IMG/VR virus record: IMGVR_UViG_3300045988_116781
Length of the DNA: 58,428 bases
Direction: 5' to 3' (one strand)
Source of the DNA: a virus
Below, piece after piece: positions 4,157-58,428 of this stretch (its first letter is position 1; each line of letters starts with the position of its first letter). Below the pieces are notes generated by a model, which saw nothing but the letters and a program-made list of their open reading frames with translations, had not been told where the DNA came from and searched no databases. The position numbers and the translations under genes are program-made.

Positions 4157-4636
4157 TCATATAAACCGCCTGATGAGAGCCAAAAACGGCTTCCTAAACA
4201 CATAGACCACAAGCACTACGAGCACGACCCAAAATCCCCTCATCTGTGTCTTCTGCCATTTGGTTAGCTCACGTTCTACCGGAACAATCTTCTCTACTTC
4301 AATATTACGGTAAATGATGCTGTCCTTACGCTCTTTCGGGACTTCAACGGGGATTCCCTTTTCCTGTGGTTTTGTCCTCAAATCATGGTAGAGCGTACCG
4401 TCAGAGTTTATCCGTGCATCTGACTCGGCAAAGTCGTTTTCAAGGTGTGAGGAACTGTCACGGGTCGTCCGCTCCGCCGTCTGTGCAGGAATTTCAACCG
4501 TAACTGTGTCGTGTATGTATTCAACCGTTTTAACGACCTCTACACGCACGCTGTCGCTTTGGACGGTAGTCAGCTTCCGGCTTGTGCCACAAGCCGTGAG
4601 AAGCAAAATTAAGGTGCAAATAAGGGCTGTTTTCAT
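4157..4636 (-). CDS. unimolecular-spanin-like lipoprotein with C-terminal TM helix
   Basis: The internal start MKTALICTLILLLTACG carries a lipobox, and the C-terminus FWVVLVVLVVYVF is a TM segment. Its ATG overlaps the endolysin stop (TAATG). Confidence 0.5.
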   Translation of the reverse strand: MKTALICTLILLLTACGTSRKLTTVQSDSVRVEVVKTVEYIHDTVTVEIPAQTAERTTRDSSSHLENDFAESDARINSDGTLYHDLRTKPQEKGIPVEVPKERKDSIIYRNIEVEKIVPVERELTKWQKTQMRGFWVVLVVLVVYVFRKPFLALIRRFI

Positions 4637-8900: not shown

Positions 8901-9543
8901 TCTGCGAGCCTCCCTGAACAAAGAGGATTTCAACGGGACGGCTTCCCGTCTCAGTAGTGCGCCCCACACCCGGGACAAAGCCGTTACCCTTGCCGTAAGA
9001 CAAAGGTAACGGGTCGTCCTTGAAATATTCGACTTTCTTCAGGTGTATGGTCTTGCCGACTATCTCCCATTCGGAGTTGAACGTATCCGCAACGCTTTGC
9101 AGCGCATCGCTCACAAACGAATGGTCGAATGCGATAGTCTTCTCGGTTGATACGATACAATCCCCAACGGCCCAACCGCTGTCACGCTGGTTGAGATTGT
9201 CCACGATTACCTGAATGTACTCCTTGGGAGTGGCGCACATGGAGAATTTGAGCCGCTTGTCCACCGTGTTGCGGAGCTTGTAGCGGTTCAGCTGGTACTG
9301 TGCGCTCTCCATTATCAGGGTGTATTCAATATCCCGTGTCCCGTTCTTTTTGATGTTCGCAGGGGCGGCAAGGGTGTACCTTATCGCCATATACTCGCAC
9401 CATGCGCCTACGGGTATCTCAACGTATTCAGGAAGAGAGAATTTCAGCGTAAGGTTATGGTCGCCCATGAGCGAGCGGTAACGGTAGCTGTCATCGCTTT
9501 CCTGTACGTCCAGCGTTGTGTCGTTGAAGTGTATCGTTATCAT
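5956..9543 (-). CDS. large distal tail / host-specificity protein (Tal-like)
   Basis: 1195 aa. It lies downstream of the tape measure and Dit-like genes, and its size and position are typical of a siphovirus tail tip protein. Confidence 0.45.
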   Translation of the reverse strand: MITIHFNDTTLDVQESDDSYRYRSLMGDHNLTLKFSLPEYVEIPVGAWCEYMAIRYTLAAPANIKKNGTRDIEYTLIMESAQYQLNRYKLRNTVDKRLKFSMCATPKEYIQVIVDNLNQRDSGWAVGDCIVSTEKTIAFDHSFVSDALQSVADTFNSEWEIVGKTIHLKKVEYFKDDPLPLSYGKGNGFVPGVGRTTETGSRPVEILFVQGGSQNIDRSKYGSAELLLPKSQTLEYEGRTYISDADGYSIRRQDKAVLYNNEDSLDCSEIYPSRVGKVTKVEVIDEANNFYDIIDNTIPENLNYNDYLIEGENMTIIFQSGMLAGDDKAFELKYNHAERRFEIVPQEIDGLTMPGGVYIPHEGDTYAIFGCMLPDAYICDNATKTGASWDMFREAARYLYENEDTKFTFSGELQGMWAKRNWLKVGGKLVVGGYVLFTDNQFAPDGVKIRITGIKDYLTSPYAPTVELSNSVSGKSLNSTLNELENGNVIVDENQKKIIQFTKRRFRDSLETIDMLEQALLENFTNSINPIAVQTMAMLVGDESLQFRFVDSSLNPIQYHITYNQETKQLIAPATVLQHMTLGIDTITSSRDKNTYKHWTMSGYTSPVLDQISQKYYFYAKVPTGTGTGEFVLSPTAIGMNDVSGYYHLLVGVLNSEYDGERSFATLYGFTEVLPGRITTDKIVSADGKTYFDLANSIIGGNIRFRSTNGTDKNVSDLEDELNERIDTQAQEFVEAVGGLQSQIDGAIESFFYEYNPTTSNVPASQWTTTEEKNKHLNDTFTNLKTGRSWRWTKSGSSYSWVEITDTATVEALAKAGQAQDTADSKRRVFVSTPYPPYDIGDLWVQGTSGDIMRCKTARASGSYYASDWVKASKYTDDSSLNNFINGDFKQLKQDAVMKETIIEGGYLKNSLIDTENLLVENIHSKNGNFQTTEDGTVKGRNAVFEGGTFKDVLLQGSLRNPFVQETDSIVVGGMQSTHDNVATISVGGGWITNGNLEWDVKQSGRRMCITNYRWGSQYSQGTIEYTAPTGKYFYENGISKNYLRLSRECVELIGYGTSTQFYGWIVLNRINLMTESRYGRKLNALAMGIVTGSSSGTSISYKTFDGTTMSVSRTGVGQYRVNFSSTWFNSANDCIAIVTGLGYSQGSSEAPIKATVIGRYSSYITVNTSDDASRNDGSFMFIILNINDWLGITN

Positions 9544-10382
9544 TATCTGCTTTCGCTGTAAAGTTCTACATAGATGCCTACCAAGTCGGCGAGAGGCTGG
9601 TAAACGGGAATTTCAGTATTACGGGTACACAGGTAGGTAATGCCGTCCTGGATGTAATACTTGCCCTGCTCCAGCTCCATATTGTTGTTGTACGGTATCG
9701 GGTCGTCAGCAGTACCGGATGCGGTCTCTACGATTTCCGTGTACAGGCTTTCAGTACCTGTTCCCGGTCGCCATTGTTCCTGTACGGTGTGCTGCTGGAG
9801 GACTTTCCACAGCCTGCCGTCACATTGCATCTTGTCGCCCTGCTTGACCTCCTTTCCGATGAGCGTTTCCCATTCGGGATATACGCTCTTTACTGACAGG
9901 GCATCGTTGTCGGTCAGGCTCATCGTGTTCACGGTAAGCATGAGCAGCTTTGCGATGTCTGCCATTCGTGGAGCGGATGCGGTTTTGGGTGTTCCCGGAT
10001 CAATCTCCAAATCCTCCTTTACCATGCTCTTGACTGACGAGACGAAAGCAAGGTATTCCTCGTATTCGGATACCACTCCAGCATCGGACAGTACGCCCTG
10101 CTGGTAGGCGTTGAATTGGTTGATGAGAGCCAGTTCCGCTTCTGCCGAATAGTCGGAGCGTATGACCGCTTCAACACACTTGCCGTATTCGGGCTTCCCG
10201 TGAATGGTGACCTCACGGCACGAATACTGAACTTTCTTTACCGATGATACAGGTTCTTCTTTCCCCTCCTGCATCATTTCATGCTGGACCTCTTCTTCCT
10301 GAATGTCCCAACGGTACAGGTAATTCCCGTTACCTACTGCCTCCAATTTAGGCGGCTTTGTGTCGTAATACGTACGTGTCAT
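9543..10382 (-). CDS. hypothetical tail-module protein
   Basis: 279-aa ORF. Its stop overlaps the start of the 1195-aa gene. No recognisable motif. Confidence 0.45.
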   Translation of the reverse strand: MTRTYYDTKPPKLEAVGNGNYLYRWDIQEEEVQHEMMQEGKEEPVSSVKKVQYSCREVTIHGKPEYGKCVEAVIRSDYSAEAELALINQFNAYQQGVLSDAGVVSEYEEYLAFVSSVKSMVKEDLEIDPGTPKTASAPRMADIAKLLMLTVNTMSLTDNDALSVKSVYPEWETLIGKEVKQGDKMQCDGRLWKVLQQHTVQEQWRPGTGTESLYTEIVETASGTADDPIPYNNNMELEQGKYYIQDGITYLCTRNTEIPVYQPLADLVGIYVELYSESR

Positions 10383-11385
10383 AAAATTCTGCTTTTAAGA
10401 TTGTTTTTAGTAAATGTCTCGAATTGCTGTATTTCGCCCAACCGAACCAGCTGCACAGAGCCTGACGGTAGTCCTCCAGCTTTACGTTGGCTTTCCTGTT
10501 CCATTTCGCCGCCGCACGGCAGAAGTTCTGCTTAATGCTTTTCCTGATAAGCGTCTGGTTGTGGTAAAATACGAAGCCTATAAAGTCCAATCCCCGGCCG
10601 TGCCTGTCGGAACGGTTATCCCCGATAGGAAACACTTGCTCGTTCCCTTTCAGGTTCAACTTCAAGTCTTTCATGTATTCCCTTATGTCTGCAAGAAGCC
10701 TGTGAAGCTCTTCTTTGCTCGATGCAAGGAATACCATGTCGTCCGCATAGCGGAAGTAGTATTTCACTCTCTTTACCTCTTTAACCCAATGGTCGAAATA
10801 TGCGAGATACAGGTTTGCGAAATACTGTGAAAGATAGTTGCCGATAGGCACTCCGGCTGCGCTGTCGATTATCTCGTCAAGAAGCCAAAGCGTGTCCTTG
10901 CACTTGATTTTCTTCCTGACGATTGACTTCAACACATCATGGTCGATTGACGGGTAGAACTTCCGAATGTCTATTTTCAGGCAGTACCGTGTGTTCTCAC
11001 GGTCTTTCATAGCCTGCTTGACCTTGCGCATCGCTCCATGTATGCCACGCTTCTTGATGCAGCTGTACGTGTCGGTAGTGAATATGGATACCCATATCGG
11101 CTCCAGCACGTTCATTATGGCATGGTGCAGGATGCGGTCGGGATAATAAGGCAGTCGGAAAATCTCACGTTCCTTTGGCTCGAATATGGTAAACGTCTCA
11201 TATTCCGAGTTCCTGAATGATTTGGTACGCAACATCTCATGCAAAGCAATGATGTTCGCTTCCCTGTTCCTGTCATGGAAACGCACACCGTATGTGTTCG
11301 CCTTACCACGTCTTGCCTTTTCGTCAGCGAGACGGAGGTTTTCCAGCGAGATGATTTTTTCGTATAAGTTGCCAAGTCTTTTCAT
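10348..11385 (-). CDS. DGR-type reverse transcriptase
   Basis: 345 aa. It has the RT motifs YADD (RYADDMVFL) and the DGR-typical IGNYLSQYFANLYL. A TR lies 132 nt upstream. Confidence 0.92.
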   Translation of the reverse strand: MKRLGNLYEKIISLENLRLADEKARRGKANTYGVRFHDRNREANIIALHEMLRTKSFRNSEYETFTIFEPKEREIFRLPYYPDRILHHAIMNVLEPIWVSIFTTDTYSCIKKRGIHGAMRKVKQAMKDRENTRYCLKIDIRKFYPSIDHDVLKSIVRKKIKCKDTLWLLDEIIDSAAGVPIGNYLSQYFANLYLAYFDHWVKEVKRVKYYFRYADDMVFLASSKEELHRLLADIREYMKDLKLNLKGNEQVFPIGDNRSDRHGRGLDFIGFVFYHNQTLIRKSIKQNFCRAAAKWNRKANVKLEDYRQALCSWFGWAKYSNSRHLLKTILKAEFYDTYVLRHKAA

Positions 11386-11517
11386 ACTGCTTTGCTTTTC
11401 TTAGTCGGGGCGTTCGGTAGCCCAAACAACGGGCGTTCCTACCAGCTCCTTTCTGACGTTATGTTTTTTGCCAAGAGGCAAGGCCGCTGCTCCCATATAT
11501 TTTTTAACCCATATTGA

Positions 11518-11633
11518 AAAGTATAGGTGAGAGCTGATGTTCGCATTCGTATTCGAGGGGGTGTTATTCGAGTTCGCATAGCTGAAGCCTGCATTCGCCC
11601 TGTTATTCGCATTACCGCTGAACAGCACACCAC
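11518..11633 (-). repeat. DGR template repeat (TR)
   Basis: This 116-bp segment is homologous to 12084-12199 and, in part, to 52000-52075. Every mismatch falls at a coding-strand adenine of this copy. It is rich in AAY codons (NANNRANAGFSYANSNNTPSNTNAN). Confidence 0.9.
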
Positions 11634-11662
11634 AAGAGCAGCCAACCTTTTTTCTCATTCTC

Positions 11663-12022
11663 TTACTCGAAATAGTACCTGTTCCCGTTACTCCGCAATG
11701 TTACCCTACGTGGGAACTTGCCCATCTCCTTAATCTTTTTCAGGACATACAGGATGTCCGCTGACCCCGTAAAGAATTTCTTTGCATCGGATTCCGGGCT
11801 GTCTTTGTCGGGCTTGATTTTGACCAAAGTCTGACCTTTTATCCCTTTCGCCTTGCTGAAACGTGTCGGGACTTCCTCGATGAAGTCCGTTACCCAAAAC
11901 GTGGTGTTCACGATTTTGGACTGTGTCGTCTCTGGGCAGTTGAAACTTCTGCTGTTCTCATCACGGGGGATTTGCAGGAAATCCAAAGAACCGTCATCTT
12001 CCAAATTGTTGTTCATGTTCAT
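11663..12022 (-). CDS. hypothetical protein at the DGR accessory (Avd) position
   Basis: 119-aa ORF between the target gene and the TR. I could not recognise Avd-like four-helix-bundle features. Confidence 0.5.
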   Translation of the reverse strand: MNMNNNLEDDGSLDFLQIPRDENSRSFNCPETTQSKIVNTTFWVTDFIEEVPTRFSKAKGIKGQTLVKIKPDKDSPESDAKKFFTGSADILYVLKKIKEMGKFPRRVTLRSNGNRYYFE

Positions 12023-12071
12023 ATCTTTTGCATTGTTGAGTTAAACTTCCTATGCGCTTCGTGCCAACGTG

Positions 12072-13508
12072 TTACGCTGGGATAAAGCAAAGGCGAGAGC
12101 CGAAGTTCGCATACGTATACGAGGGGGCGTTATACGAGTACGCAGAGCCGAAGCCCGCAGTCGCCCCGTAATTCGCAGAACCGCCGAACAGCACACCACG
12201 CAATGTTTCAGTAGTGGGTATGTTCGTGTAATGGTAATCACAGAAATAGGTAGTAGAACCTCCACCTACAACGGACGGCATGATTTCTCCGCCCTCTCCG
12301 AAAATTACCTCCTTTACATAGGATTCCGTTCGGGCTTCATTTCCGACATGGGACATGTTGTTATAGTTGCTGTCGTTGAAATATTCCGGATTGTCCGTGA
12401 CAAATACCTTGCTTAAACCGTCCCCGGTCGGTTCATTCGGAGAGATGCGCACATTGATACCGTCAGTCCATTGCCACAGATGTCCGAAAGGATTTTCGAT
12501 ACCTCTGTAACGTGGCACTTTGACGGTAAGCCCTGCGCTGTCGTATTCCTCCGGCATTGAGAACTCCACTTCGCCCGTACCGTTACCCAACTCGTCGGTA
12601 TATCCGCACGGAATGAATGGATAGTAGCCATTGAACGCACTCCATTTAGAACTGTTAAGATTGGTCACACCATCTCCGAGACCGCCCTGCGCATATCCGT
12701 TGCTGTCCTTTGAAGCGTTGAACGCCTTTTGAGAGTTCAGGGTTGCGTATTCGATGATAAAGAGCCAAAACAGGTCTTTCTGAATGTCATACGTCATGCA
12801 GTTCCACTCCTTTGTTGCGGATTTGCGCTTGCGTGCATAAGTGCGAAAGTTTGTACGTGAAATTGACGTTGCAGGTCTTCCAATCAGGGTACGGTAAGTT
12901 CCGTCCCATTCCGCATTGTTGTTACCTCCCCTGTAATCCGCAGTCTCATTGACAACGGAGCATAGCGTGGTCGTTGAACGCTGTACGGTGGCTTCATAGG
13001 CGGATACGTATTTCTTCCTTACCTGATGATAGCCGGGCAGGGGATATTCCGAAATCTTGACCCTGCGCTTGTTGCCCTCGGTCTCGAACTTGCGGTAGTA
13101 CATTGGAAGTTCCACCATGACTTGACCACGTGAACCGTCACGGGTGTTGCCTCTCCAATCGGCAGGATTGAGGTATTCCGTAACAGTGCCATCATCCGCC
13201 AAAAGACAGCCTTTCATCCGGCTTTGGATAGGCAGGCTCTTGTGCAGCTCCATGTTCCCGATACGGGTGCATTCGGGAGACGATACGGTGACATCGTACT
13301 CGATGCCATAGGCGCAGTTCTCTTCAAGGTAGGGCATAAAGGTAGCGAGAGCAGCCTTTTTGCTTTCCCCGTCCGTGTCAAGCACCTCACACAATAGTTC
13401 AAAGGGGTTTGTACCCTCCACTTCCGGCAGATCCGCCAGACGTTTTCCGTTCTCGAAAGCCTCGATGATTGAACGCACCTTGCTTTCTTCTTCGCTTGTT
13501 AATGCCAT
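12072..13508 (-). CDS. DGR target protein 1 (tail fibre / receptor-binding candidate with C-terminal variable region)
   Basis: 478 aa. The C-terminal GVLFGGSANYGATAGFGSAYSYNAPSYTYANFGSRLCFIPA is encoded by VR1. An upstream GIENPFGHLWQWTDG-type motif is typical of C-type-lectin/FGE-fold DGR targets. Confidence 0.85.
   Translation of the reverse strand: MALTSEEESKVRSIIEAFENGKRLADLPEVEGTNPFELLCEVLDTDGESKKAALATFMPYLEENCAYGIEYDVTVSSPECTRIGNMELHKSLPIQSRMKGCLLADDGTVTEYLNPADWRGNTRDGSRGQVMVELPMYYRKFETEGNKRRVKISEYPLPGYHQVRKKYVSAYEATVQRSTTTLCSVVNETADYRGGNNNAEWDGTYRTLIGRPATSISRTNFRTYARKRKSATKEWNCMTYDIQKDLFWLFIIEYATLNSQKAFNASKDSNGYAQGGLGDGVTNLNSSKWSAFNGYYPFIPCGYTDELGNGTGEVEFSMPEEYDSAGLTVKVPRYRGIENPFGHLWQWTDGINVRISPNEPTGDGLSKVFVTDNPEYFNDSNYNNMSHVGNEARTESYVKEVIFGEGGEIMPSVVGGGSTTYFCDYHYTNIPTTETLRGVLFGGSANYGATAGFGSAYSYNAPSYTYANFGSRLCFIPA
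12084..12199 (-). repeat. DGR variable repeat 1 (VR1)
   Basis: 116 bp aligned to the TR without gaps. All 19 mismatches are at TR adenines on the coding strand. Confidence 0.9.
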
Positions 13509-13512
13509 AATT

Positions 13513-13779
13513 TTAACTGTTTAATAGTTTGAAAACTGATTTGCTTCCTGATTTTATCAATGATGCAGCTCTTTCGCCGCTCATCCTGAGACGTTCGCCC
13601 GTATGCACAGGCCTCTTGCGTGTCCGTTTCGTTCCTGTCATGATTTTGCAGACAGGCTTTCCGTTGCTGACCACGAACATTACCGAACCGGGCGTATTGA
13701 GCCGCATAGCGTCATACTTCCTGAACGATGCCCAAGAGCGCATACGTCTCACTACCGATATGAAGATTGAGACTATCAT
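13513..13779 (-). CDS. small basic hypothetical protein
   Basis: The start MIVSIF... overlaps the upstream stop (ATGA). The gene ends 4 nt before the DGR target gene. Confidence 0.35.
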   Translation of the reverse strand: MIVSIFISVVRRMRSWASFRKYDAMRLNTPGSVMFVVSNGKPVCKIMTGTKRTRKRPVHTGERLRMSGERAASLIKSGSKSVFKLLNS

Positions 13780-14096
13780 ACCTGTTCCACCCAAGAACCG
13801 CTACCCCAATAGATGTCGCATTCTCCGAGTATCTCCATATCCGGCGCAATCTCCACTATCGCCATAGGCGACCAGTCGTTGTACGCTATGGGAGCATCGG
13901 AAAATCTCTCATCCTGATAGCATTTCACACTCAATACGGTATCCAGTGCTTCGGATGCCGTATCCTTTGGCCTGATGTAGACCGAAAACGGGGTGTCGTT
14001 AGGCAGCTTGAAGCCTTGCGACAGGCTTTCAATCTTGCCGTGGGACAGGATGCGTCCCCCGTTCATAAATTCGCTGATGTAACCTTTCTGTGCCAT
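13776..14096 (-). CDS. hypothetical tail-module protein
   Basis: 106-aa ORF in operon context. No recognisable motif. Confidence 0.45.
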   Translation of the reverse strand: MAQKGYISEFMNGGRILSHGKIESLSQGFKLPNDTPFSVYIRPKDTASEALDTVLSVKCYQDERFSDAPIAYNDWSPMAIVEIAPDMEILGECDIYWGSGSWVEQV

Positions 14097-14110
14097 AACC
14101 GAATGTATTT

Positions 14111-14785
14111 TTAGTTCAACCTGATATTTCCGTTTGCCGTCAGGCGCATAGATGTACGAGTGGCAAGCCTTATGGTCGGTGCAGTCACCTTAATCTGAAT
14201 GGTCCTGAAAAGAGCCATGTTGCAGGTAGGTATGACGTGTATTACGCTCGTTCCTGCACCGAGAACGGTGATCCTCCCGTCAGGGGTTACCGAAACCGCC
14301 TTATCATCTCCCAGGCAGAGTACATTCTGATGTACCCTTTCAGGAAGCAGTACTGCATCTATCTTGGCCGTCTTGTTGCCTGTTGTCAGATGAGCCGGAT
14401 AGCTCAACTCCATAGAGGTAGGGAACAGTCCCAACGCTTCAAGGTTGGATGCAGTCTCTATGATTTCCCGGCAGTCCTCCGTAGCCTGATTGGCTTCTTC
14501 CGTAGCATTCTCGCAACCCTCCTTTGCGGTATTCGCCGCATTTGCGGCGGTATTGGCGGTACTTGCCGCCGTGTTCGCATTTCCAGCGGCCGTATTTGCC
14601 GCCGATGTTGCGGAATTTGCGTTCGATATTACCGTCTGTACTGACTGCTTCAACGAGTTTACCGTGTTGGCGATATACTCCAGCGATACCTTTACGCTCC
14701 TGTTGAGCGCATCAACGCCTATGGTAAAAAGCCCCGTGAATGTCTCACAAAGCGGAAGTTCCGATATTTTCTTCTTCGTTGCCAT
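14111..14785 (-). CDS. Ig-like (Big_2-like) domain protein with Ala/Asn/Thr-rich repeat
   Basis: 224 aa. It has an ANSATSAANTAAGNANTAASTANTAANAANTA low-complexity stretch. The C-terminal VSVTPDGRITVLGAGTSVIHVIP...IKVTAP resembles bacterial Ig-like group 2 domains. Confidence 0.5.
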   Translation of the reverse strand: MATKKKISELPLCETFTGLFTIGVDALNRSVKVSLEYIANTVNSLKQSVQTVISNANSATSAANTAAGNANTAASTANTAANAANTAKEGCENATEEANQATEDCREIIETASNLEALGLFPTSMELSYPAHLTTGNKTAKIDAVLLPERVHQNVLCLGDDKAVSVTPDGRITVLGAGTSVIHVIPTCNMALFRTIQIKVTAPTIRLATRTSMRLTANGNIRLN

Positions 14786-14796
14786 ATATCATTTCC

Positions 14797-15723
14797 TTAA
14801 TCGTTTCTCAATAGGATATTGCTTTCTCCGTCCTCTGTAAGCACGAGCGCATCATCCTCGGTTGCCAGCAACGCATGGTTGCCAATCGGTCGGTAATTAG
14901 TGAACGTGAGCACTACCGAGAACTCGCACCAAACACGGCCGTTACGCATGATGTCGAACTTCGATACCGTGTTCTTCTTGTAGAAGCAGTCGAACTCCTC
15001 CACCGTCTTGTCAAGGTACAGGCTTCTTTCCTCCGGCTTCAGAAGTTCCGTAAACAGGGAGTTCCAACGCTTCCAGAATACGGTAACATTCGCCGCACGG
15101 ATAAGCAGCTTCAACGTCACGTCCTTTGCTTCATAAAAGACGTTTTCTCCGTCATACGAAACGCCTGCTACAGACTTGATGTCGATTGTAAGGTTCGGGC
15201 GCACGTTAGGGGCTTTCAGTATGCTGTCGTCACTTCCGTCAAGCACATATACACCGAACCGTGAGAAGTCGATACCGTCAAGCTCGTAGCCCGACTGATG
15301 CACGTCTTCCGCTCCTGTTGAATACGGCGTATCCTGATCCGGTTCGGGAAAATCATCTGCAAAACTCAAAGAAAGCTTGCCGAGATGTATTCTTGACGAC
15401 AGGGAGCCGTTGCTTACAAGCCTAAGTTTGTACGTCTTGCCAAGCTCCGTGAAGTTGAACGTATGATATGACTTGTCGGAAAGCAACTCGAACAGGTCAC
15501 TTGCAGAAGTGATATCGGTAATGCAGAACGATATGGCGAACGTCTTTGTGTCAAGTACAGGTGCGGACAGGTCGTATTCCTCCCCGTCATATTCCGGCCA
15601 TTCCGTACTTTCTATGTTCTTGAATGGCGGAAGCTGAATGAGAGCCTTGTACCCGTACTGTTCGACAAATACGCCGTATTCATCGAAAGCATCCGTTCCG
15701 TCTATGTAAAGCCTGCCTTTCAT
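14797..15723 (-). CDS. distal tail protein (Dit-like) candidate
   Basis: 308 aa. Called from its position downstream of the tape measure. Confidence 0.4.
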   Translation of the reverse strand: MKGRLYIDGTDAFDEYGVFVEQYGYKALIQLPPFKNIESTEWPEYDGEEYDLSAPVLDTKTFAISFCITDITSASDLFELLSDKSYHTFNFTELGKTYKLRLVSNGSLSSRIHLGKLSLSFADDFPEPDQDTPYSTGAEDVHQSGYELDGIDFSRFGVYVLDGSDDSILKAPNVRPNLTIDIKSVAGVSYDGENVFYEAKDVTLKLLIRAANVTVFWKRWNSLFTELLKPEERSLYLDKTVEEFDCFYKKNTVSKFDIMRNGRVWCEFSVVLTFTNYRPIGNHALLATEDDALVLTEDGESNILLRND

Positions 15724-15724
15724 A

Positions 15725-16213
15725 CTACATCAATATCCTTGCATGGTCCTGTCTGATGAATGTCACATCCGACTTGTCGTCTTTTTCGATACGCACTACC
15801 GAATATCCTCCGGCCAATACGGAGGCACTTGCCCCGTGCATCAAATGAAGCCTGTTTCCGGCGTTCTCACGGTATTTCACGGTCGCAACGGTGTCGCCTA
15901 TCAGAAACGCTTTGCGAGCCTCTGTAAGCGTTATCTTACCGCTGTCTATGTACACGCCGAAACGTTCGGGACGGTACTGCTTGAACTTCCTGAATGTCGC
16001 CAAGTCAGGAAAGCCGAATTTTGTCAGGAACTCGATGCCACGCGGGGAGAAGATGAGTTCCACAAGTCCCTCCAAATCCTCCGTTCCCTTGAACATGTCG
16101 CATTCCGCAAGCTTGCGTGCCATTTCACGGTCGCCCATGCTCATGCAGCGTTCCTGTGCGGCCTGTTTCGCCGCTTTCCATTCTTCCTGTATATGTCTTA
16201 CAAGCTCTTTCAT
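15725..16213 (-). CDS. hypothetical protein
   Basis: 162-aa ORF. Its start overlaps the tape measure stop by 4 nt. Confidence 0.45.
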   Translation of the reverse strand: MKELVRHIQEEWKAAKQAAQERCMSMGDREMARKLAECDMFKGTEDLEGLVELIFSPRGIEFLTKFGFPDLATFRKFKQYRPERFGVYIDSGKITLTEARKAFLIGDTVATVKYRENAGNRLHLMHGASASVLAGGYSVVRIEKDDKSDVTFIRQDHARILM

Positions 16214-19200
16214 CGCTGTATCCTTAATCCTTTTAATTGTATGTCGTTCAGGGTGCTTGAAACTTTTGATACTCTTTTATCCAAGTTGTCAAGCTTCGTG
16301 TTGGTCTCAGCCGTATTGTTCTCTATGCCCATGAGACGCTCCAGCACAAGGTTACCGATACGGTTAAGCTCCACAACTCCCGTCATTATCGAATAGGTAT
16401 GTCCCTGTATGGTAGTCAATCGGGCATTATTCTCGTCCACGCTCTCCTGTGAAGCGGTAGCAATGCCTTTCTGCGTACCCTCACGGGTGGTTTCTGCATC
16501 TCCCAATATGATGTCTTTCAATTCATCAGGAAGCCCCTCCATACCCTCGGAGAAGATGTTTACCAATCCGTACAGTTCATTGGCGAAAGCCCCCATACTG
16601 TTGTTTATGGCATCAATGCCCTTGAACGTGCCGTCATCGCCGAACCACTTTGTCTTATACCTGTCGAACAGCTGTCCGATGGGTTTTTCAAGAAGTTCTG
16701 TAACGAGCATACGCTTGACAATATCAGACACAATGTCGTCTACTGTGTCTTTCCATGCCTTTGCAGCATCCTCGCCCTCACGGAACGCATCAAAGAACGC
16801 ATCGCCGAGCTGTTCCGCAATGTCAGCCGCCGAGCCTCCGATAATGTCCTCTACCATCTCGTTGATGACAGCGACCATCTCATGACCAATCTCCTGAATG
16901 TCTCGCTTCCATTCTTCGATTTTGCCGCTGTCGCTGTCTTTCTTGCTGCTCTCCGCATTGATTTGCTGCTGGATAGCCAACTGCTGCTCCGCAAGGTTTT
17001 CGAGCTGGGAACGGCTGCTTTCGTACTTCTCCGCTCCCAAAGCCTTATCAGCGGAATATTCAATGTCCGCATAGGCATCCGCAATCTTCTCTATGGATTT
17101 TTGGTATATCTCACTTTGATAGAGTGCCGGCCCGATCAGACGGTAGACGCTGCTGTAATAGTAGGCGGTGGCGTTATGGAGTTCCAGAACCTCTGCGGTT
17201 GCTTCCCTTACCACGTCTTGCAGTTTTTGCAGGGAGTCGAAAGAGTTGTCCTGCATACGTACCACGTCCGCATTGTCAAGTTCCCATTGCAGCTGGTCTA
17301 TACGTCCTTGCAGACGCTCTATTTCTTCCTGATACTCCTCGTCATTATTGAACAGTCCGGCAATGGCGGTAGCTATCTGCAGGGCTGCGGATATAACCGC
17401 AAGTATCACGGATGCTTTCTCAACGGTGGAGATTGAGGCTGCTGCGGCGGTTGCGCTTGCCTGCATACCTGTACTTGCAGCACTTACTGTGCTCGACATG
17501 GCGGATGCAACGTTCTTTCCCACATCCCCTATGGCGGAAATTACAGTAGAGGTAGCATCCAGCACTTCGTCTATGAAGTCTATCGCCTTGCCTATACCTG
17601 CACCTACTTCATCGCTGAAAACGTCTGCCAAGTTCTTTGCATGGCCTCCTACGCTGTCGATAACGCCCTTTACATTGTTCAGCTGGTTGGCGAATGTCTT
17701 GTAGGACGTAGTGAGGTTGTTACGGGCTGTAAGCACTCCCTGTTCGGCGTTCTTGCTCCGTGTCTCTGCGCTGGTCAGGCGGTTGGTGGCATTAGTCACA
17801 TTCTCTACGGCCTGCGCATATTCTTCGGTGTCCTTTGAGGTCTTGCCATCCTGAACGAGCGCATCAAGTTCCTGCTGTGCCTGTATCGCAAGGTTATACT
17901 GTTCCTGTGCGGCGGTAAGCTCAATCTGCGCATCCTTGTACTCGTTGAGTGACGTGACTACCATGTCCTTTGCATCCCCGATGTCTTTCATGGCTTTTAT
18001 AAGTCCCGTGAAAGGGTTTCGGTTGGCAATCTCGTCCTCGATGGACTTGATAGCCTCCTGCATGTCCCTAATCTCGGTCACGTCCATATTGCCTTTGTTG
18101 GCATCGAACATGGATTGAACCTGTCCCAAAGTATGCTGTAGCGAAGAAAGCGACTGTTTGCTCAAATCCCCGAAAACGCTATCCCAATTTATATTTTTCT
18201 TGAACTGGTCTATATCGAGCTTTGACAGTTCTTCGAGATAGAGCCTGTTCGCTTCTGCTTGGTATTTTGCCGGAATGAGTGCAAGGCGGCTTTCCCAATC
18301 TTCCTGAAGCTGCTCACGTTTTTGGTAATAGTTGCCGTATGCAGAAAGCCAATAATCCTCCAATTCCTGCCCCTCTGCGGCGTTTATTTTTCCCGATAGG
18401 TCATTGTATTGGTCTTGTGTGATATTGCCTCCTGCAAGGTCTTTGCTGAGCTGCTTGCGCTGTTCCTGATAGGTGCGTTTTATGGCGTTTACCTTACGCT
18501 GTTCCTCCGAAACGAAAACGTCAGCCAAGTCCTCATACAGTCCCTTTATATATTCGGCATTCTCTTCCTCAGCCTCCCGGGTCTCGTTGGTTGCGGTTGC
18601 GTTAGCCGCATCCCTTTGTGTCTGAAATGCTTTACGGTCGGATTCCGAAAGTGTCTGACCGAGCTTTCCGAGCTTTTGAGACAGTTCCGCTTCTTCCTGG
18701 TCTATGGCGGAGATTGTCTGCTTCCTTTGGTTCTCGATTTCACGGAGACGTTTTTTAAGCCCATCTTGCAACGCAGATATTTCCGCATCCGAAGCATCGG
18801 CAAGCAACTGCTTACGCTGTTTTGCAATGTCTTCAAGCAGTTTTTTCCGTTCCTCAGCCTGTTTTTTCAGGTTGGTATTCTCTTTTGTGTCGCCTCCAAG
18901 GTCTTTGTATGCCTTTTCAGCCGCATCATACGTTTCTTTGGCTTTTTTGTATTGGTCGGAGGTGTACTTTGACCTCTCGCTGTTTATCTTGTCAAGTTCG
19001 GATTTAGCCTTTTCCCATTCTTTTCTTGCAGAGTCATAGTCCTGTTGGAACGTGGTCTGTGCGTTTTTCTGTGCCTGTAATGCCGATACTTTTGCATCCG
19101 CATCTTTCAGGCTTCCCTGCAAGTTGCGGAAACGCATATTGAGGAAAATATCCACGTTCCATATACCCAAGCTGTTTTCTGTCTTTCGCTGCTGTTCCTC

Positions 19201-20865
19201 GACCTTTTTCTTTACCCGGTCAAACTCTTTCCTGATGCTGTCTCTTTCGTCTATGGCCAGTTCAAGTTTCGTGTCAAGCGGCAAGGCTGCATATTCCGCT
19301 TCTTTGCGGATACGCTCTATCTCGTCTACATCTTTTTGCAGGCTATCAACGATTATCTGCACCTGTTCCTGCTTGTTTTCGAGAAGTCCTGTGCCGAATT
19401 CCTCACGCAACAGGTTTGCGTTTTGTTCAGACAGTTTTGTCCAATCCTCATCAGCCTGCTTGATGTCGTCAAGCAAGGTCTTGTACTTGTTCAGCTCATC
19501 TATCTTGTGCTGGTACGTTTCTTCATCCTGTATCTCGTTCAGACGCTTTGTCGTCTCTGAAAGGTCGGCGGCTGCAAGCTCTTGCATTGTGTATGCGTTG
19601 GTTATCTCCGGGCACAACTTTTTCAGACGTTCATAAGCCGCTATCTGTGAATAGTCTGTTTCCGTCTTGTCCCTGATGACATTGATACACTCGTCAATGG
19701 CTTGCCGTTCTTCTTCCAACTTCTGACGGTAAGCATCGCTGTCCTCATTCAGCTTTTCCTGTGCCTTTTCCGCATTGCTCGTGCTGTCTGTATAAAGCAC
19801 CAACGCCGTAACAACTCCGATGATAGCCGCTGCAAGGAGGACGTAGGGGTTTGCCCATGCGGTGATATTGAACGCCTGCTGTGCAGCCGTGAGCAATCCG
19901 AGTTCCTTTCGGAACATCATTATAAGCCGTATGCTCTCGGTAAGGTTTCGTGCCTTTTCCACCACCCATACAGCCATCAAAGCTGCCTTGTATGTGCCGT
20001 ATGCGGCCGCTACGGACAATATGGCGTTCAGGAACACATCATAATGTTCTACCATATTCGTAAGCAGGTTCACACCGCTTACGAACACGCTCTGCTGGCT
20101 GCTTCCTATCTCGTTGAGCATGGAGTTCCATGCGCCCTCCAAGTTGGACAACGCACCGTTTATGCCCTCCGATTGCTTTTCGAGCATTCCGTAGAACTGA
20201 CCTCCCTCAGCCGTTGCAGACGCAAAGGCTTTCTCCATATCCTCTGCGGATATTGTCCCCTTTGACATCTCGTCTCGGAGTTCTGCGATACTCTTGCCCG
20301 TGTCCTTTGACATTTGGTTTAACGGGTTGAAACCTGCGTTAATCATCTGCAGCAGGTCTTGACCCATGAGCTTGCCGTTAGCCGATGCCTGCGCAAAAGC
20401 CAGCACAAGGGATTGGAAACGCTCGGCATTGCCCATCGAAATGTCGCCGATTTGTTTCAATATTGGCATTACCTTTTCAGCCGCCACACCGAATCCGAGA
20501 AGCGTCTGCGCACCTTTGGCAAGCGGTTCGAGCGTCATAGGTGTCTTTACCTCGAACTCACGGATTGCCCCGAACAGTTCTTTTGCCTTGTCGGTAGAGC
20601 CGAGCAGGGTAGCAAAGGAGATTTCAAGCGACTCGATTTCGCCCCTGACCTGCACAACGCTACGGGCAAAGTTCGTCAGGGCGGTAACTGAGAAATATGC
20701 GGCGGCAGCAGTACCGATAGTCCTCATTGCACTGTCGATACGCTTGCTCTCGTTCTCTATGTTGCCGCCCATGCTCTTGAACTCGTTGGACGCTCTTTTT
20801 GCGGAAGCCTCCAACTGCGCCGTGTCAAGCGTTATGGCATAGGACAGTCTTTCTTTGTCGCTCAT
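16210..20865 (-). CDS. tail tape measure protein
   Basis: 1551 aa with long coiled-coil and alanine-rich segments. It lies immediately downstream of the frameshifted chaperone pair. Confidence 0.88.
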   Translation of the reverse strand: MSDKERLSYAITLDTAQLEASAKRASNEFKSMGGNIENESKRIDSAMRTIGTAAAAYFSVTALTNFARSVVQVRGEIESLEISFATLLGSTDKAKELFGAIREFEVKTPMTLEPLAKGAQTLLGFGVAAEKVMPILKQIGDISMGNAERFQSLVLAFAQASANGKLMGQDLLQMINAGFNPLNQMSKDTGKSIAELRDEMSKGTISAEDMEKAFASATAEGGQFYGMLEKQSEGINGALSNLEGAWNSMLNEIGSSQQSVFVSGVNLLTNMVEHYDVFLNAILSVAAAYGTYKAALMAVWVVEKARNLTESIRLIMMFRKELGLLTAAQQAFNITAWANPYVLLAAAIIGVVTALVLYTDSTSNAEKAQEKLNEDSDAYRQKLEEERQAIDECINVIRDKTETDYSQIAAYERLKKLCPEITNAYTMQELAAADLSETTKRLNEIQDEETYQHKIDELNKYKTLLDDIKQADEDWTKLSEQNANLLREEFGTGLLENKQEQVQIIVDSLQKDVDEIERIRKEAEYAALPLDTKLELAIDERDSIRKEFDRVKKKVEEQQRKTENSLGIWNVDIFLNMRFRNLQGSLKDADAKVSALQAQKNAQTTFQQDYDSARKEWEKAKSELDKINSERSKYTSDQYKKAKETYDAAEKAYKDLGGDTKENTNLKKQAEERKKLLEDIAKQRKQLLADASDAEISALQDGLKKRLREIENQRKQTISAIDQEEAELSQKLGKLGQTLSESDRKAFQTQRDAANATATNETREAEEENAEYIKGLYEDLADVFVSEEQRKVNAIKRTYQEQRKQLSKDLAGGNITQDQYNDLSGKINAAEGQELEDYWLSAYGNYYQKREQLQEDWESRLALIPAKYQAEANRLYLEELSKLDIDQFKKNINWDSVFGDLSKQSLSSLQHTLGQVQSMFDANKGNMDVTEIRDMQEAIKSIEDEIANRNPFTGLIKAMKDIGDAKDMVVTSLNEYKDAQIELTAAQEQYNLAIQAQQELDALVQDGKTSKDTEEYAQAVENVTNATNRLTSAETRSKNAEQGVLTARNNLTTSYKTFANQLNNVKGVIDSVGGHAKNLADVFSDEVGAGIGKAIDFIDEVLDATSTVISAIGDVGKNVASAMSSTVSAASTGMQASATAAAASISTVEKASVILAVISAALQIATAIAGLFNNDEEYQEEIERLQGRIDQLQWELDNADVVRMQDNSFDSLQKLQDVVREATAEVLELHNATAYYYSSVYRLIGPALYQSEIYQKSIEKIADAYADIEYSADKALGAEKYESSRSQLENLAEQQLAIQQQINAESSKKDSDSGKIEEWKRDIQEIGHEMVAVINEMVEDIIGGSAADIAEQLGDAFFDAFREGEDAAKAWKDTVDDIVSDIVKRMLVTELLEKPIGQLFDRYKTKWFGDDGTFKGIDAINNSMGAFANELYGLVNIFSEGMEGLPDELKDIILGDAETTREGTQKGIATASQESVDENNARLTTIQGHTYSIMTGVVELNRIGNLVLERLMGIENNTAETNTKLDNLDKRVSKVSSTLNDIQLKGLRIQR

Positions 20866-21607: not shown

Positions 21608-21626
21608 ATTCTAAAATCTAAATTTG

Positions 21627-21711
21627 CGGAGGGTGGAGGATTCGAACCTCCGGTGCGTTTCCGCACGCCTCGTTAGCAATGAGGTGCATTAAGCCGCTCT
21701 GCCAACCCTCC
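21627..21711 (-). tRNA. tRNA-Ser (anticodon GCU), type II with long variable arm
   Basis: The reverse complement folds as a cloverleaf. Acceptor stem: GGAGGGT/ACCCTCC. D stem: GCA/TGC. Anticodon loop: TTGCTAA. Variable arm: GTGCG-GAAA-CGCAC. T arm: GGAGG-TTCGAAT-CCTCC. No CCA is encoded. Confidence 0.85.
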
Positions 21712-51926: not shown

Positions 51927-52514
51927 TTAGCCAAGATTGAAGTACGACCACAGGTCGATGAACTGCTTGCCGCAATACGTGGCGAGTTCTTCGCTCTTTA
52001 AGCAAAGGCGAGAGCCGACGGACGCAGTCGTAGTCGAGGGGGCGTGATACGAGTACGCAGAGCCGAAGCCCGCATAGTGTTCTGAAACTCTGTCCCGTAC
52101 GTCCATCATACGGCGTTCTTTCTTTTCCTCTACGCTCATTTCGTCAAGCTCTTTTTGTGTGTAGAGCCAAAACCAAGGATACCACCTTACCTCGTCTTTG
52201 GTGAACTGTGGCTCCCAGCCCTCGTTTAGAGCTGCTACGACAATCCTTAGCTGGAGATATGCTTCAAGGTTCGGAGACAGATTTTCTCCTAAATTCCATT
52301 CTTTTACGAACGGGTGTTCGCTGCCAAGTTCACGGCAAGCGTCATTGAATGTCCTTACACGAGCCATGATGTTCTTCTGCTGGAACATATCCTTTCCGAA
52401 TATTGCTTCAAGCATCTTTTTCGTTGCCTTATCCGCTTCGTTGTAGTTCTTGATAAGGTTCTCTTTTGAAATTTTTACTTCACTCATTGTTACTGAAATT
52501 TTGATGTTGTCCAT
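51927..52514 (-). CDS. DGR target protein 2 (small early-region protein carrying VR2)
   Basis: 195 aa. The segment AGFGSAYSYHAPSTTTASVGSRLCL is encoded by a 76-bp copy of the TR. 25 further residues follow the VR. Confidence 0.7.
   Translation of the reverse strand: MDNIKISVTMSEVKISKENLIKNYNEADKATKKMLEAIFGKDMFQQKNIMARVRTFNDACRELGSEHPFVKEWNLGENLSPNLEAYLQLRIVVAALNEGWEPQFTKDEVRWYPWFWLYTQKELDEMSVEEKKERRMMDVRDRVSEHYAGFGSAYSYHAPSTTTASVGSRLCLKSEELATYCGKQFIDLWSYFNLG
52000..52075 (-). repeat. DGR variable repeat 2 (VR2, remote, 5'-truncated relative to the TR)
   Basis: 76 bp aligned without gaps to TR 11519-11594. All 16 mismatches are at TR coding-strand adenines. Its 3' boundary sequence is the same as that of VR1. 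Confidence 0.8.
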
Positions 52515-58162: not shown

Positions 58163-58428
58163 ATGAGCGGCGAAGAAGTAAAAGAAAAACTCAAGCAGGA
58201 GGGCATAGTATTCTCGGAATTAGCCCGTTTGCTCGGTTACGACAGCGACCAGCGGCTGCACTCGGCATTGAAAGCCAACGATGTCAGGAGCGGCCTTATC
58301 GAGGATATTGCCCGTGCGATAAATAAAAGTGTTTCTTGGTTCTACCCAGAGACCACCAAAACTGTTGCTACGGACAACGGAATTGCTGTGTCCGGGAACG
58401 AGAACCAAATCACGGTAATATCCGAGAA
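58163..58428 (+). CDS. 5' portion of the XRE-like HTH regulator (continues at nt 56-137 after the 55-nt overlap)
   Basis: MSGEEVKEKLKQEGIVFSELARLLGYDSDQRLHSALKANDVRSGLIEDIARAINKSVSWFY is HTH-like. The ORF runs off the window end in frame with 3..137. Confidence 0.6.
   Translation, partial: MSGEEVKEKLKQEGIVFSELARLLGYDSDQRLHSALKANDVRSGLIEDIARAINKSVSWFYPETTKTVATDNGIAVSGNENQITVISE
58374..58428. repeat. 55-nt terminal overlap, identical to nt 1-55
   Basis: Exact identity read directly from both ends. An ORF is continuous across the join. Confidence 0.95.

Follow-up and report, generated by a model that had tools for sequence, protein, structure and literature searches.

A diversity-generating retroelement with an accessory-position protein unlike Avd in sequence and a second, remote variable repeat in the genome of a probable Bacteroidales tailed phage

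The described systems closest to the element reported here are the diversity-generating retroelement (DGR) of phage BPP-1, arranged as mtd, avd, template repeat (TR) and brt; the lineage-3 DGRs of CLec3 type, exemplified by crAssphage LMMB, with the order target, TR, reverse transcriptase (RT) and no avd; and the DGR of the Bacteroides uniformis siphophage 'Bacuni', in which one target adjoins the accessory gene, TR and RT and a second target is distant (PMC8143477). LMMB's DGR belongs, by published assignment, to lineage 3 of Wu et al., which lacks avd (PMC7290462, PMC5758913), and DGRs of gut Bacteroidales phages, including those with two targets, are well documented (PMC8143477, PMC10743442, 10.1101/2024.11.15.621889). 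Here we analyze a DGR in the IMG/VR virus record IMGVR_UViG_3300045988_116781, a stretch of 58,428 nucleotides referred to as the window. We put the probability that this is a functional DGR carried by a temperate Bacteroidales tailed phage at about 0.92.

A sequence-only reading of the window had described a complete DGR cassette in the tail module. All of its feature coordinates were verified, on the minus strand, and the parts that it listed are present, but it had overlooked a structured spacer RNA and a remote second variable repeat (VR2). The parts are listed below, where VR1 is variable repeat 1, IMH (initiation of mutagenic homing) refers to the 3' segment of a VR and IMH* to that of the TR, and ORF and pI stand for open reading frame and isoelectric point.

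10348-11385, minus strand: DGR reverse transcriptase, 345 aa, with IGNYLSQ and YADD motifs
11388-11485, minus strand: structured spacer RNA, Rfam RT-17 (RF03020), 50.7 bits, presumed recruiting or priming element of the DGR RNA
11518-11633, minus strand: TR, 116 nt with 32 adenines; 3' end (11518-11535, AGCTCTCACCTATACTTT) IMH*-like
11663-12022, minus strand: accessory-position protein, 119 aa, phrog_19665, pI 9.0, not Avd by sequence
12064-12080, minus strand: imperfect hairpin CCAGCGT-AAC-ACGTTGG, directly 3' of VR1 and across the stop codon
12084-12199, minus strand: VR1, target codons 437-475; 3' end (12084-12101, GGCTCTCGCCTTTGCTTT) IMH-like
12072-13508, minus strand: target gene 1, 478-aa tail-module protein, phrog_5302 'tail protein'
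52000-52076, minus strand: VR2, equivalent to the 3' 77 nt of the TR, with 17/17 mismatches at TR adenines
51927-52514, minus strand: target gene 2, 195 aa, phrog_11581; VR2 covers residues ~147-171 and is followed by 23 further residues

The locus has the gene order of BPP-1 (target carrying its VR at the 3' end, then a small basic accessory protein, TR, structured spacer and RT) and shares with it adenine-specific differences, a GC-rich IMH-like segment, an inverted repeat after the VR and a tail-protein target. It differs in its accessory, which is unrelated to Avd in sequence and is beta-rich in a low-confidence model rather than a four-helix bundle, in a spacer of the RT-17 rather than the RT-10 type (PMC5737381), in a short and weak hairpin, in its second remote target, and in a VR motif of the CLec3 rather than the CLec1 type. 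The lineage-3/CLec3 DGRs likewise have a target in tail-fibre position; LMMB, however, has no ORF between target and TR, where the window has a conserved 119-aa ORF, and the phage of the window is temperate and tailed with a 1551-aa tape measure, is not crAss-like, and has two targets. The arrangement of Bacuni, one target adjoining the accessory gene, TR and RT and the other distant, is repeated here. Its targets carry DUF1566 or Fib_succ_major motifs and are fimbrial-tip-like, whereas those of the window have no Pfam match; its accessory is annotated as Avd and both of its VRs lie at the extreme 3' end, whereas the window accessory is not Avd and VR2 corresponds to only part of the TR and has 23 codons after it. 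Bacuni has no nucleotide match to the window.

TR and VR1, each 116 nt long, align without gaps over 97 identities, and all 19 of the 19 mismatches fall at coding-strand adenines of the TR, reproducing the earlier count; by composition, the chance of this is (32/116)^19 = 2.4e-11. The homology breaks off abruptly at both sides. VR1 sits at the 3' end of the coding target, where, as the sequence-only reading had it, it encodes the C-terminal ~40 aa of the 478-aa protein, and the TR adjoins the RT gene, a placement expected of a DGR. The TR translation, GVLFSGNANNRANAGFSYANSNNTPSNTNANISSHLYF, displays the AAY-rich codons noted before. The 3' segment shared by the VR (GGCTCTCGCCTTTGCTTT) and the TR (AGCTCTCACCTATACTTT) is GC-rich and carries fixed differences. 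The last variable site is at TR index 95, with index 98 seldom variable, and the fixed VR/TR differences G/A (index 105) and T/A (index 109) each occur in 78/88 pairs across the family, most of which holds CTCGCCTTTGC in the VR and CTCACCTATGC in the TR. Judged by this alignment pattern, the segment behaves like an IMH/IMH* pair. An 85-aa ORF (11401-11658, minus strand) runs across the TR into the RT-17 region, and gene callers annotate it in related contigs at a length of 85 or 31 aa. Since the open frame of the VR is passed on to the TR, this ORF is most likely an artefact.

Comparison with relatives reveals diversity confined to the positions of TR adenines. Twenty related loci were fetched from public assemblies with the accessory protein sequence, and one (L012), carrying a one-base shift, was left out of the fixed-register comparison, leaving 19. 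The TR is identical or one base different in 19/19 of these loci, and their VR1 differs from that of the window at 10-17 sites, almost all of them TR adenines; the L012 TR/VR1 pair, realigned by BLAST, contains 19 mismatches, 95% of them at TR adenines. Diversity, calculated as the mean pairwise difference per site across 14 collinear genomes, reaches 0.46 at the TR-adenine positions of VR1 and is 0.006 at its other positions, 0.005 (0.0047) in the TR, 0.004 in both the accessory gene and the spacer, and 0.005 in the RT gene. Such a pattern among related sequences is as expected from repeated mutagenic retrohoming and is hard to obtain otherwise.

Just upstream of the target, at window positions 13509-14522 (positions 1-1014 of loci L002-L020), genes differ by 0.16-0.23 per site between genomes that are otherwise ~99% identical across the cassette. 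This segment contains a 106-aa ORF and the C-terminal part of a 224-aa alanine-rich tail-fibre-like protein, and its divergence looks like allele replacement, not related to the DGR. In one further locus, L040, the TR (4380-4496) has lost many AAY adenines and shows only 8 differences from its VR; this template is perhaps in decay, or its VR may have overwritten it.

The RT ORF contains GVPIGNYLSQYFANLYL (also given as GVPIGNYLSQYF) and YFRYADDMVFL, and both motifs attributed to it earlier, YADD and the DGR-typical IGNYLSQ, were found. Its family matches are RVT_1 in Pfam (E 7e-20) and phrog_1423, a family of phage RTs (E 4e-128). The best match among solved structures is the 328-aa chain 8ub7 (E 9e-44), with which the RT aligns full length (residues 2-326), placing IGNYLSQ opposite IGSLTSQ and YADD opposite YMDD. 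The search output names this chain 'Reverse transcriptase', and we take it to be the Bordetella phage bRT, a further likeness to BPP-1. Group II intron RTs (3e-19) and retron-type RTs (5e-19) follow, 8ub7 scoring better than the group II RTs by 24 orders of magnitude. With its [I/L]GxxxSQ motif and its closer match to 8ub7 than to group II or retron RTs, the enzyme is, by sequence comparison, an RT of the DGR type. The nearest RTs among deposited phages belong to crAss-like phages, at 46-59% identity (46% for crAssphage LMMB), a likeness that suggests, by similarity alone, placement with lineage 3.

The 132 nt between TR end and RT start are largely occupied by the Rfam RT-17 match, whose 50.7 bits exceed the gathering score of 40.4 and which spans the full model (1-95/95) on the coding strand. 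RT-17 occurs at the equivalent place between TR and RT in 16/18 diverse related cassettes (L012, L024 and L025 among them). In BPP-1 this gap is occupied by RT-10, a sister motif of RT-17, and those who described the motifs surmised that further DGRs make use of other RT motifs (PMC5737381). The match and its recurrence make the window a case in point, with RT-17 filling the TR-RT gap of a DGR.

The order VR, accessory, TR, RT is retained in 91/100 metagenome or viral loci, down to 56% RT identity. These 91 are the loci in which a full, adenine-specific TR/VR pair of at least 100 nt was detected; most of the others are cut upstream, with little or no room for a VR. Two loci, L011 and L012, have flanks unrelated to the window, and their 92% nucleotide homology to it begins inside the target gene (codon ~124 or ~168) and stops near the end of the RT gene, the shared module covering positions 1384-4230 of L011, 1517-4106 of L012 and about 10290-13140 of the window. 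These limits indicate that the C-terminal target domain, accessory ORF, TR, spacer and RT travel as one module of ~2.7 kb. Read from these homology limits, the DGR moves as a ~2.7-kb unit that brings its own putative receptor-binding domain, the C-terminal two-thirds of the target. At the other end of the cassette, a 279-aa ORF (9543-10382, minus strand) overlaps the RT stop; it has a sub-threshold match to the carbohydrate-binding family CBM_5_12 (E 0.003) and is swapped for a 139-aa ORF in some relatives.

The accessory, composed of 119 residues with a pI of 9.0 and ending 30 nt before the TR, is a small basic protein directly upstream of the TR, as Avd is. The cautious label 'accessory-position' in the sequence-only reading, in place of Avd, was well chosen, as no similarity of the protein to Avd, HRDC or MutS-like proteins could be detected. 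It lacks any Pfam, NCBIfam or PADLOC-independent annotation, and its sole match is phrog_19665, of unknown function. Searches with the accessory and 34 relatives down to ~30% identity returned no match at E <= 1 to the accessory-related families, covering the four-helix-bundle Avd family (Pfam 23S_rRNA_IVP / TIGR02436), HRDC and MutS, and the family profile had no match among PDB sequences. As regards the other accessory classes of DGRs, there is no HRDC or MutS Pfam match, and a length of 119 aa with a pI of 9.0 is unlike CH1 (160-169 aa, pI ~4.7; PMC5758913). A tblastn search of 50,697 phage records at E <= 1e-3 found no match to the accessory; a match in Acinetobacter phage MD-2021a (E = 10) was discarded, there being no RT close by.

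An AlphaFold2 model of the accessory, built from 34 sequences, has a predicted local distance difference test score (pLDDT) of 55.6, shows the order strand-strand-strand-helix-strand-strand, and has no significant fold match in the PDB by Foldseek. The order of elements is that of an OB (oligonucleotide/oligosaccharide-binding) fold and unlike a helical bundle, and on this model an OB fold is a guess. The top three Foldseek matches in BFVD carry the label 'reverse transcriptase domain' (E 1.5e-3 to 2e-2) and had raised the idea of an accessory-RT domain fusion. This lead was uninformative and was dropped, because the accessory+RT proteins of public assemblies (P0271, P0293, P0298) are in-frame deletion chimeras, not true fusions: in each, an N-terminal accessory portion runs directly into internal or C-terminal RT sequence, and the TR is lost. 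The chimeras are decayed cassettes or assembly artefacts and probably explain the RT labels of the BFVD matches; by hhalign, the accessory family has no similarity to the RT.

The accessory family is small, with 104 clusters at 50% identity, and abundant within gut samples, with 544 clusters at 90% identity. An RT homologue follows the accessory homologue in 100/100 metagenome or viral loci, with 56-100% identity where the RT is complete and a distance of ~250-370 nt from accessory to RT in uncut loci. Going by this linkage, the 119-aa protein is very probably a DGR component that stands where Avd stands. It possibly represents a new accessory class, and it may equal one of the unnamed PAG1-4 candidates of Wu et al. 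(PMC5758913).

The regularity of VR bases opposite certain TR adenines sets apart a second group of template positions. Seven TR adenines were never variable in the 20 VR1 copies first compared, being fixed as G (six) or T (index 109). Sequence context was then surveyed at interior adenines in 88 distinct TR/VR pairs with 45 different TRs. Adenines in CAG appear in the VR as G in 148 cases, as A in 4 and as C or T in none, and those in AAY, TAT, CAT and GAA change to all four bases. CAG is likewise read as G in 25/25 instances from 16 genome-derived loci. In the accessory-less, independent crAss LMMB family, G stands at 27/27 TAG, 33/36 CAG, 9/9 GAG and 9/9 AAG adenines, so that TR adenines before G appear as G in both groups; over all NAG adenines (loci L002-L101 and L182-L208), the figure is ~97%, with C and T never seen. 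At a synonymous third-codon site (GCA to GCG) the VR has G in 66 cases and A in 2, which means that protein-level selection is not the whole cause. The TRs of the family themselves hold A or G at exactly these NAG sites, as if the two were equivalent.

According to a 2025 preprint on the BPP-1 bRT in E. coli, the error spectrum is governed by the 3' neighbour, and C is the only base misincorporated outside AAC/AC contexts, so that A becomes G (10.1101/2025.08.18.670894). That report agrees with the direction of the NAG pattern here, not with its near-100% rate. Very-short-patch or mismatch repair and template dislocation were set aside as sources of NAG-to-G, the C/T outcomes or A-to-C changes that they predict being unseen. 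An enzymatic rule is the leading idea for this regularity. A broader proposal, to which we give somewhat less than even odds, is that the window represents a distinct DGR subtype, in which a non-Avd, possibly OB-like 119-aa protein and RT-17 replace Avd and RT-10. The RT, here and in the related avd-less crAss-type DGRs, would in addition read NAG adenines as G near-deterministically, so that TRs would hold both randomising AAY adenines and 'cryptic guanine' NAG adenines.

VR2 is a third copy of the repeat, and its 17 mismatches to the 3' 77 nt of the TR all fall at adenines (17/17). It lies near, not at, the 3' end of the 195-aa ORF, about 40 kb from the cassette in the linear window. The window carries an exact 55-nt terminal direct repeat (1-55 = 58374-58428). 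Its assembly is circular or terminally redundant, the unit being 58,373 bp, which places VR2 ~18 kb from the RT the other way round. Close relatives (L102-L104) show diversity at the adenine sites of VR2. In three more distant phages (L116/L024, L115/L064 and L117/L041) VR2 tracks the TR of its own contig, non-adenine differences included, which makes it a real, co-evolving second target. The 195-aa protein matches phrog_11581 (E 1e-63), and its gene is flanked by a replisome organizer homologue and a NinB/Orf recombination mediator; these replication and recombination neighbours place it outside the structural module. The homology between the two targets is limited to 40 VR residues (hhalign probability 97%), and among 3899 database clusters of the 195-aa family none has a Pfam domain or a name. 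Identification of the protein as a tentaclin, with N-terminal C-lec and Ig domains, was rejected: tentaclins measure 313-649 aa and come from Firmicutes phages, and Ig domains are absent here.

The cassette is located in the tail module, between the tape-measure and tail genes and a 1195-aa tail-associated protein; the neighbours include the tape measure protein (16210-20865, 1551 aa) and a phrog_6305 tail protein (14797-15723). The tail-fibre position proposed for target 1 holds in view of these neighbours and of the match of the 478-aa protein to phrog_5302 'tail protein' (E 4e-145). A further match joins residues 207-475 to the C-terminus of phrog_14959, whose 2494-position profile recalls by its length the very long CLec3 targets of Wu et al. 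(PMC5758913). Searches including profiles of the target family gave no Pfam or PDB sequence match. The AlphaFold2 model from a 40-sequence alignment has a pLDDT of 42.8, falling to <30 across the C-terminus, and Foldseek against the PDB gave nothing significant, a result that is meaningless at that quality. The C-type lectin fold for which structure prediction had been recommended was thus not demonstrated, although the VR ends in GSRLC, resembling the CLec3 class and the VR end of the LMMB-type DGRs; 'SRLC/A' is the signature reported for lineage-3/CLec3 VRs (PMC7290462). Together, GSRLC and the phrog_14959 link weakly suggest the CLec3 class.

The proposed hairpin 3' of VR1 is real as a sequence and weak as a structure. 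Spanning 12080-12064, 4 bases past the end of the TR/VR homology, it forms 7 pairs including one G-T, contains the TAA stop, and is present in the minimum-energy fold, with the segment no more stable than shuffles (z = 0.07). Among 76 distinct related downstream sequences, only its 10-mer core GCGTAACACG recurs (43/76), perfect stems are mostly 3-5 bp, and no compensatory changes were seen; no conserved counterpart was found after VR2. Inverted repeats downstream of the IMH were present in only 34% of the DGRs of Wu et al. (PMC5758913), so this result neither supports nor weakens the DGR call.

The sequence parts, their conserved order, the restriction of VR diversity to adenines and the constancy of the TR across related genomes are direct observations, and the pathway that would connect them follows the analogy with BPP-1. 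The accessory gene, TR, RT-17 spacer and RT would be co-transcribed, and the RT would bind the structured spacer RNA, probably together with the 119-aa basic protein in the role of Avd. Priming would occur from the spacer, and the RT would copy the TR into cDNA with misincorporation opposite adenines, mostly those of AAY codons. The cDNA would then replace VR1 in the 478-aa gene, and its 3' 77 nt would also replace VR2 in the 195-aa gene, with direction set by the GC-rich 3' segment and its fixed differences, CTCGCCTTTGC in the VR against CTCACCTATGC in the TR. The outcome would be a phage population in which the tip of the tail protein varies at ~12 to 14 codons, all lying within 444-469, a variation that presumably changes receptor binding. 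We therefore describe the element as an ordinary member of the avd-less DGR lineage whose accessory protein is possibly new, and, to judge from the sequence patterns, it is probably active. Several points weigh against a functional DGR of this kind. VR1 and VR2 variation was read from consensus assemblies between samples, not from reads within a population. The accessory, without similarity to Avd and modelled at a pLDDT of 55.6, has its role assigned from position only. The expected C-type lectin fold could not be shown (pLDDT 42.8; no Pfam or PDB sequence match), and hairpin stability is at chance level, with a conserved counterpart at VR2 not found.

The 119-aa ORF could instead be an ordinary phage gene between target and TR, in a DGR that needs no accessory, like other lineage-3 elements. 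The ORF has no similarity to any known DGR accessory class, the crAss-like RTs (46-59% identity) work in cassettes without such an ORF (PMC7290462), and genes sandwiched between DGR parts may, according to Wu et al., be mere phage genes (PMC5758913). We nevertheless consider a passenger unlikely: an RT follows the ORF in all 100 loci, across 56-100% RT identity, different backbones and several Bacteroidales genera; in L011 and L012, where homology runs from inside the target gene to the RT stop, the ORF moves together with the cassette; it is as conserved as the RT (0.004 vs 0.005 per site); and, like Avd, it is basic (pI 9.0) and small.

Much less probable still is a recently inactivated relic, whose TR/VR pattern would record past activity only. 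The diversity data come from consensus assemblies, and decayed versions exist in public assemblies, namely the in-frame accessory-RT deletion chimeras and the L040 TR short of adenines. The window, by contrast, has an intact RT ORF with catalytic motifs, a TR with 32 adenines and all other parts in place, and VR1 differs in each of the relatives whose RTs are 98-99% identical and whose accessories are 99% or fully identical, a finding that calls for many recent retrohoming events within the lineage. Practically no weight attaches to the idea that VR1 variability stems from ordinary positive selection or recombination of tail-fibre alleles and that the RT belongs to a group II intron, a retron or a defence system. 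Tail-fibre tips are commonly hypervariable, and the region upstream of the target is also diverse between genomes (0.16 per site), but VR1 varies only where an invariant, non-translated copy 566 nt away has an adenine (0.46 vs 0.006). In NCBIfam the RT stays under the curated cut-off of every RT family, and far under it for group II, retron and Drt; RT-17 is the sole Rfam match, with no intron or retron RNA. A functional DGR remains the preferred explanation.

Prophages of Mediterranea massiliensis, Phocaeicola coprocola, Prevotella, Alloprevotella and other Bacteroidales carry homologous cassettes. No related phage among those deposited emerged from megablast searches with the cassette and with 24 kb from the structural region. 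Elsewhere in the window, positions 800-1337 contain a 160-nt unit repeated 2.2 times (100% identical), with internal 12-nt repeats containing GTTATAAC and degenerate copies extending to 1337; the arrangement is reminiscent of an iteron or operator array. On the coding strand, a tRNA-Ser gene (anticodon GCT; 21626-21711, minus strand) precedes the tape-measure gene by ~0.8 kb.

A DGR in a tail gene of a gut Bacteroidales phage is to be expected, and the window supplies a further well-documented example; the parts worth specialist attention are the accessory family and the NAG rule. If the 119-aa protein is a DGR cofactor, it would represent a second solution to the RT-cofactor problem in an avd-less lineage. 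VR2 offers a natural example of partial-tract retrohoming, using the 3' two-thirds of the TR, into a protein encoded outside the structural module. The NAG pattern provides evidence from natural populations that sequence context, beside adenine identity, decides the outcome of mutagenesis, and bears both on TR design and on the 2025 reports of context dependence in bRT.

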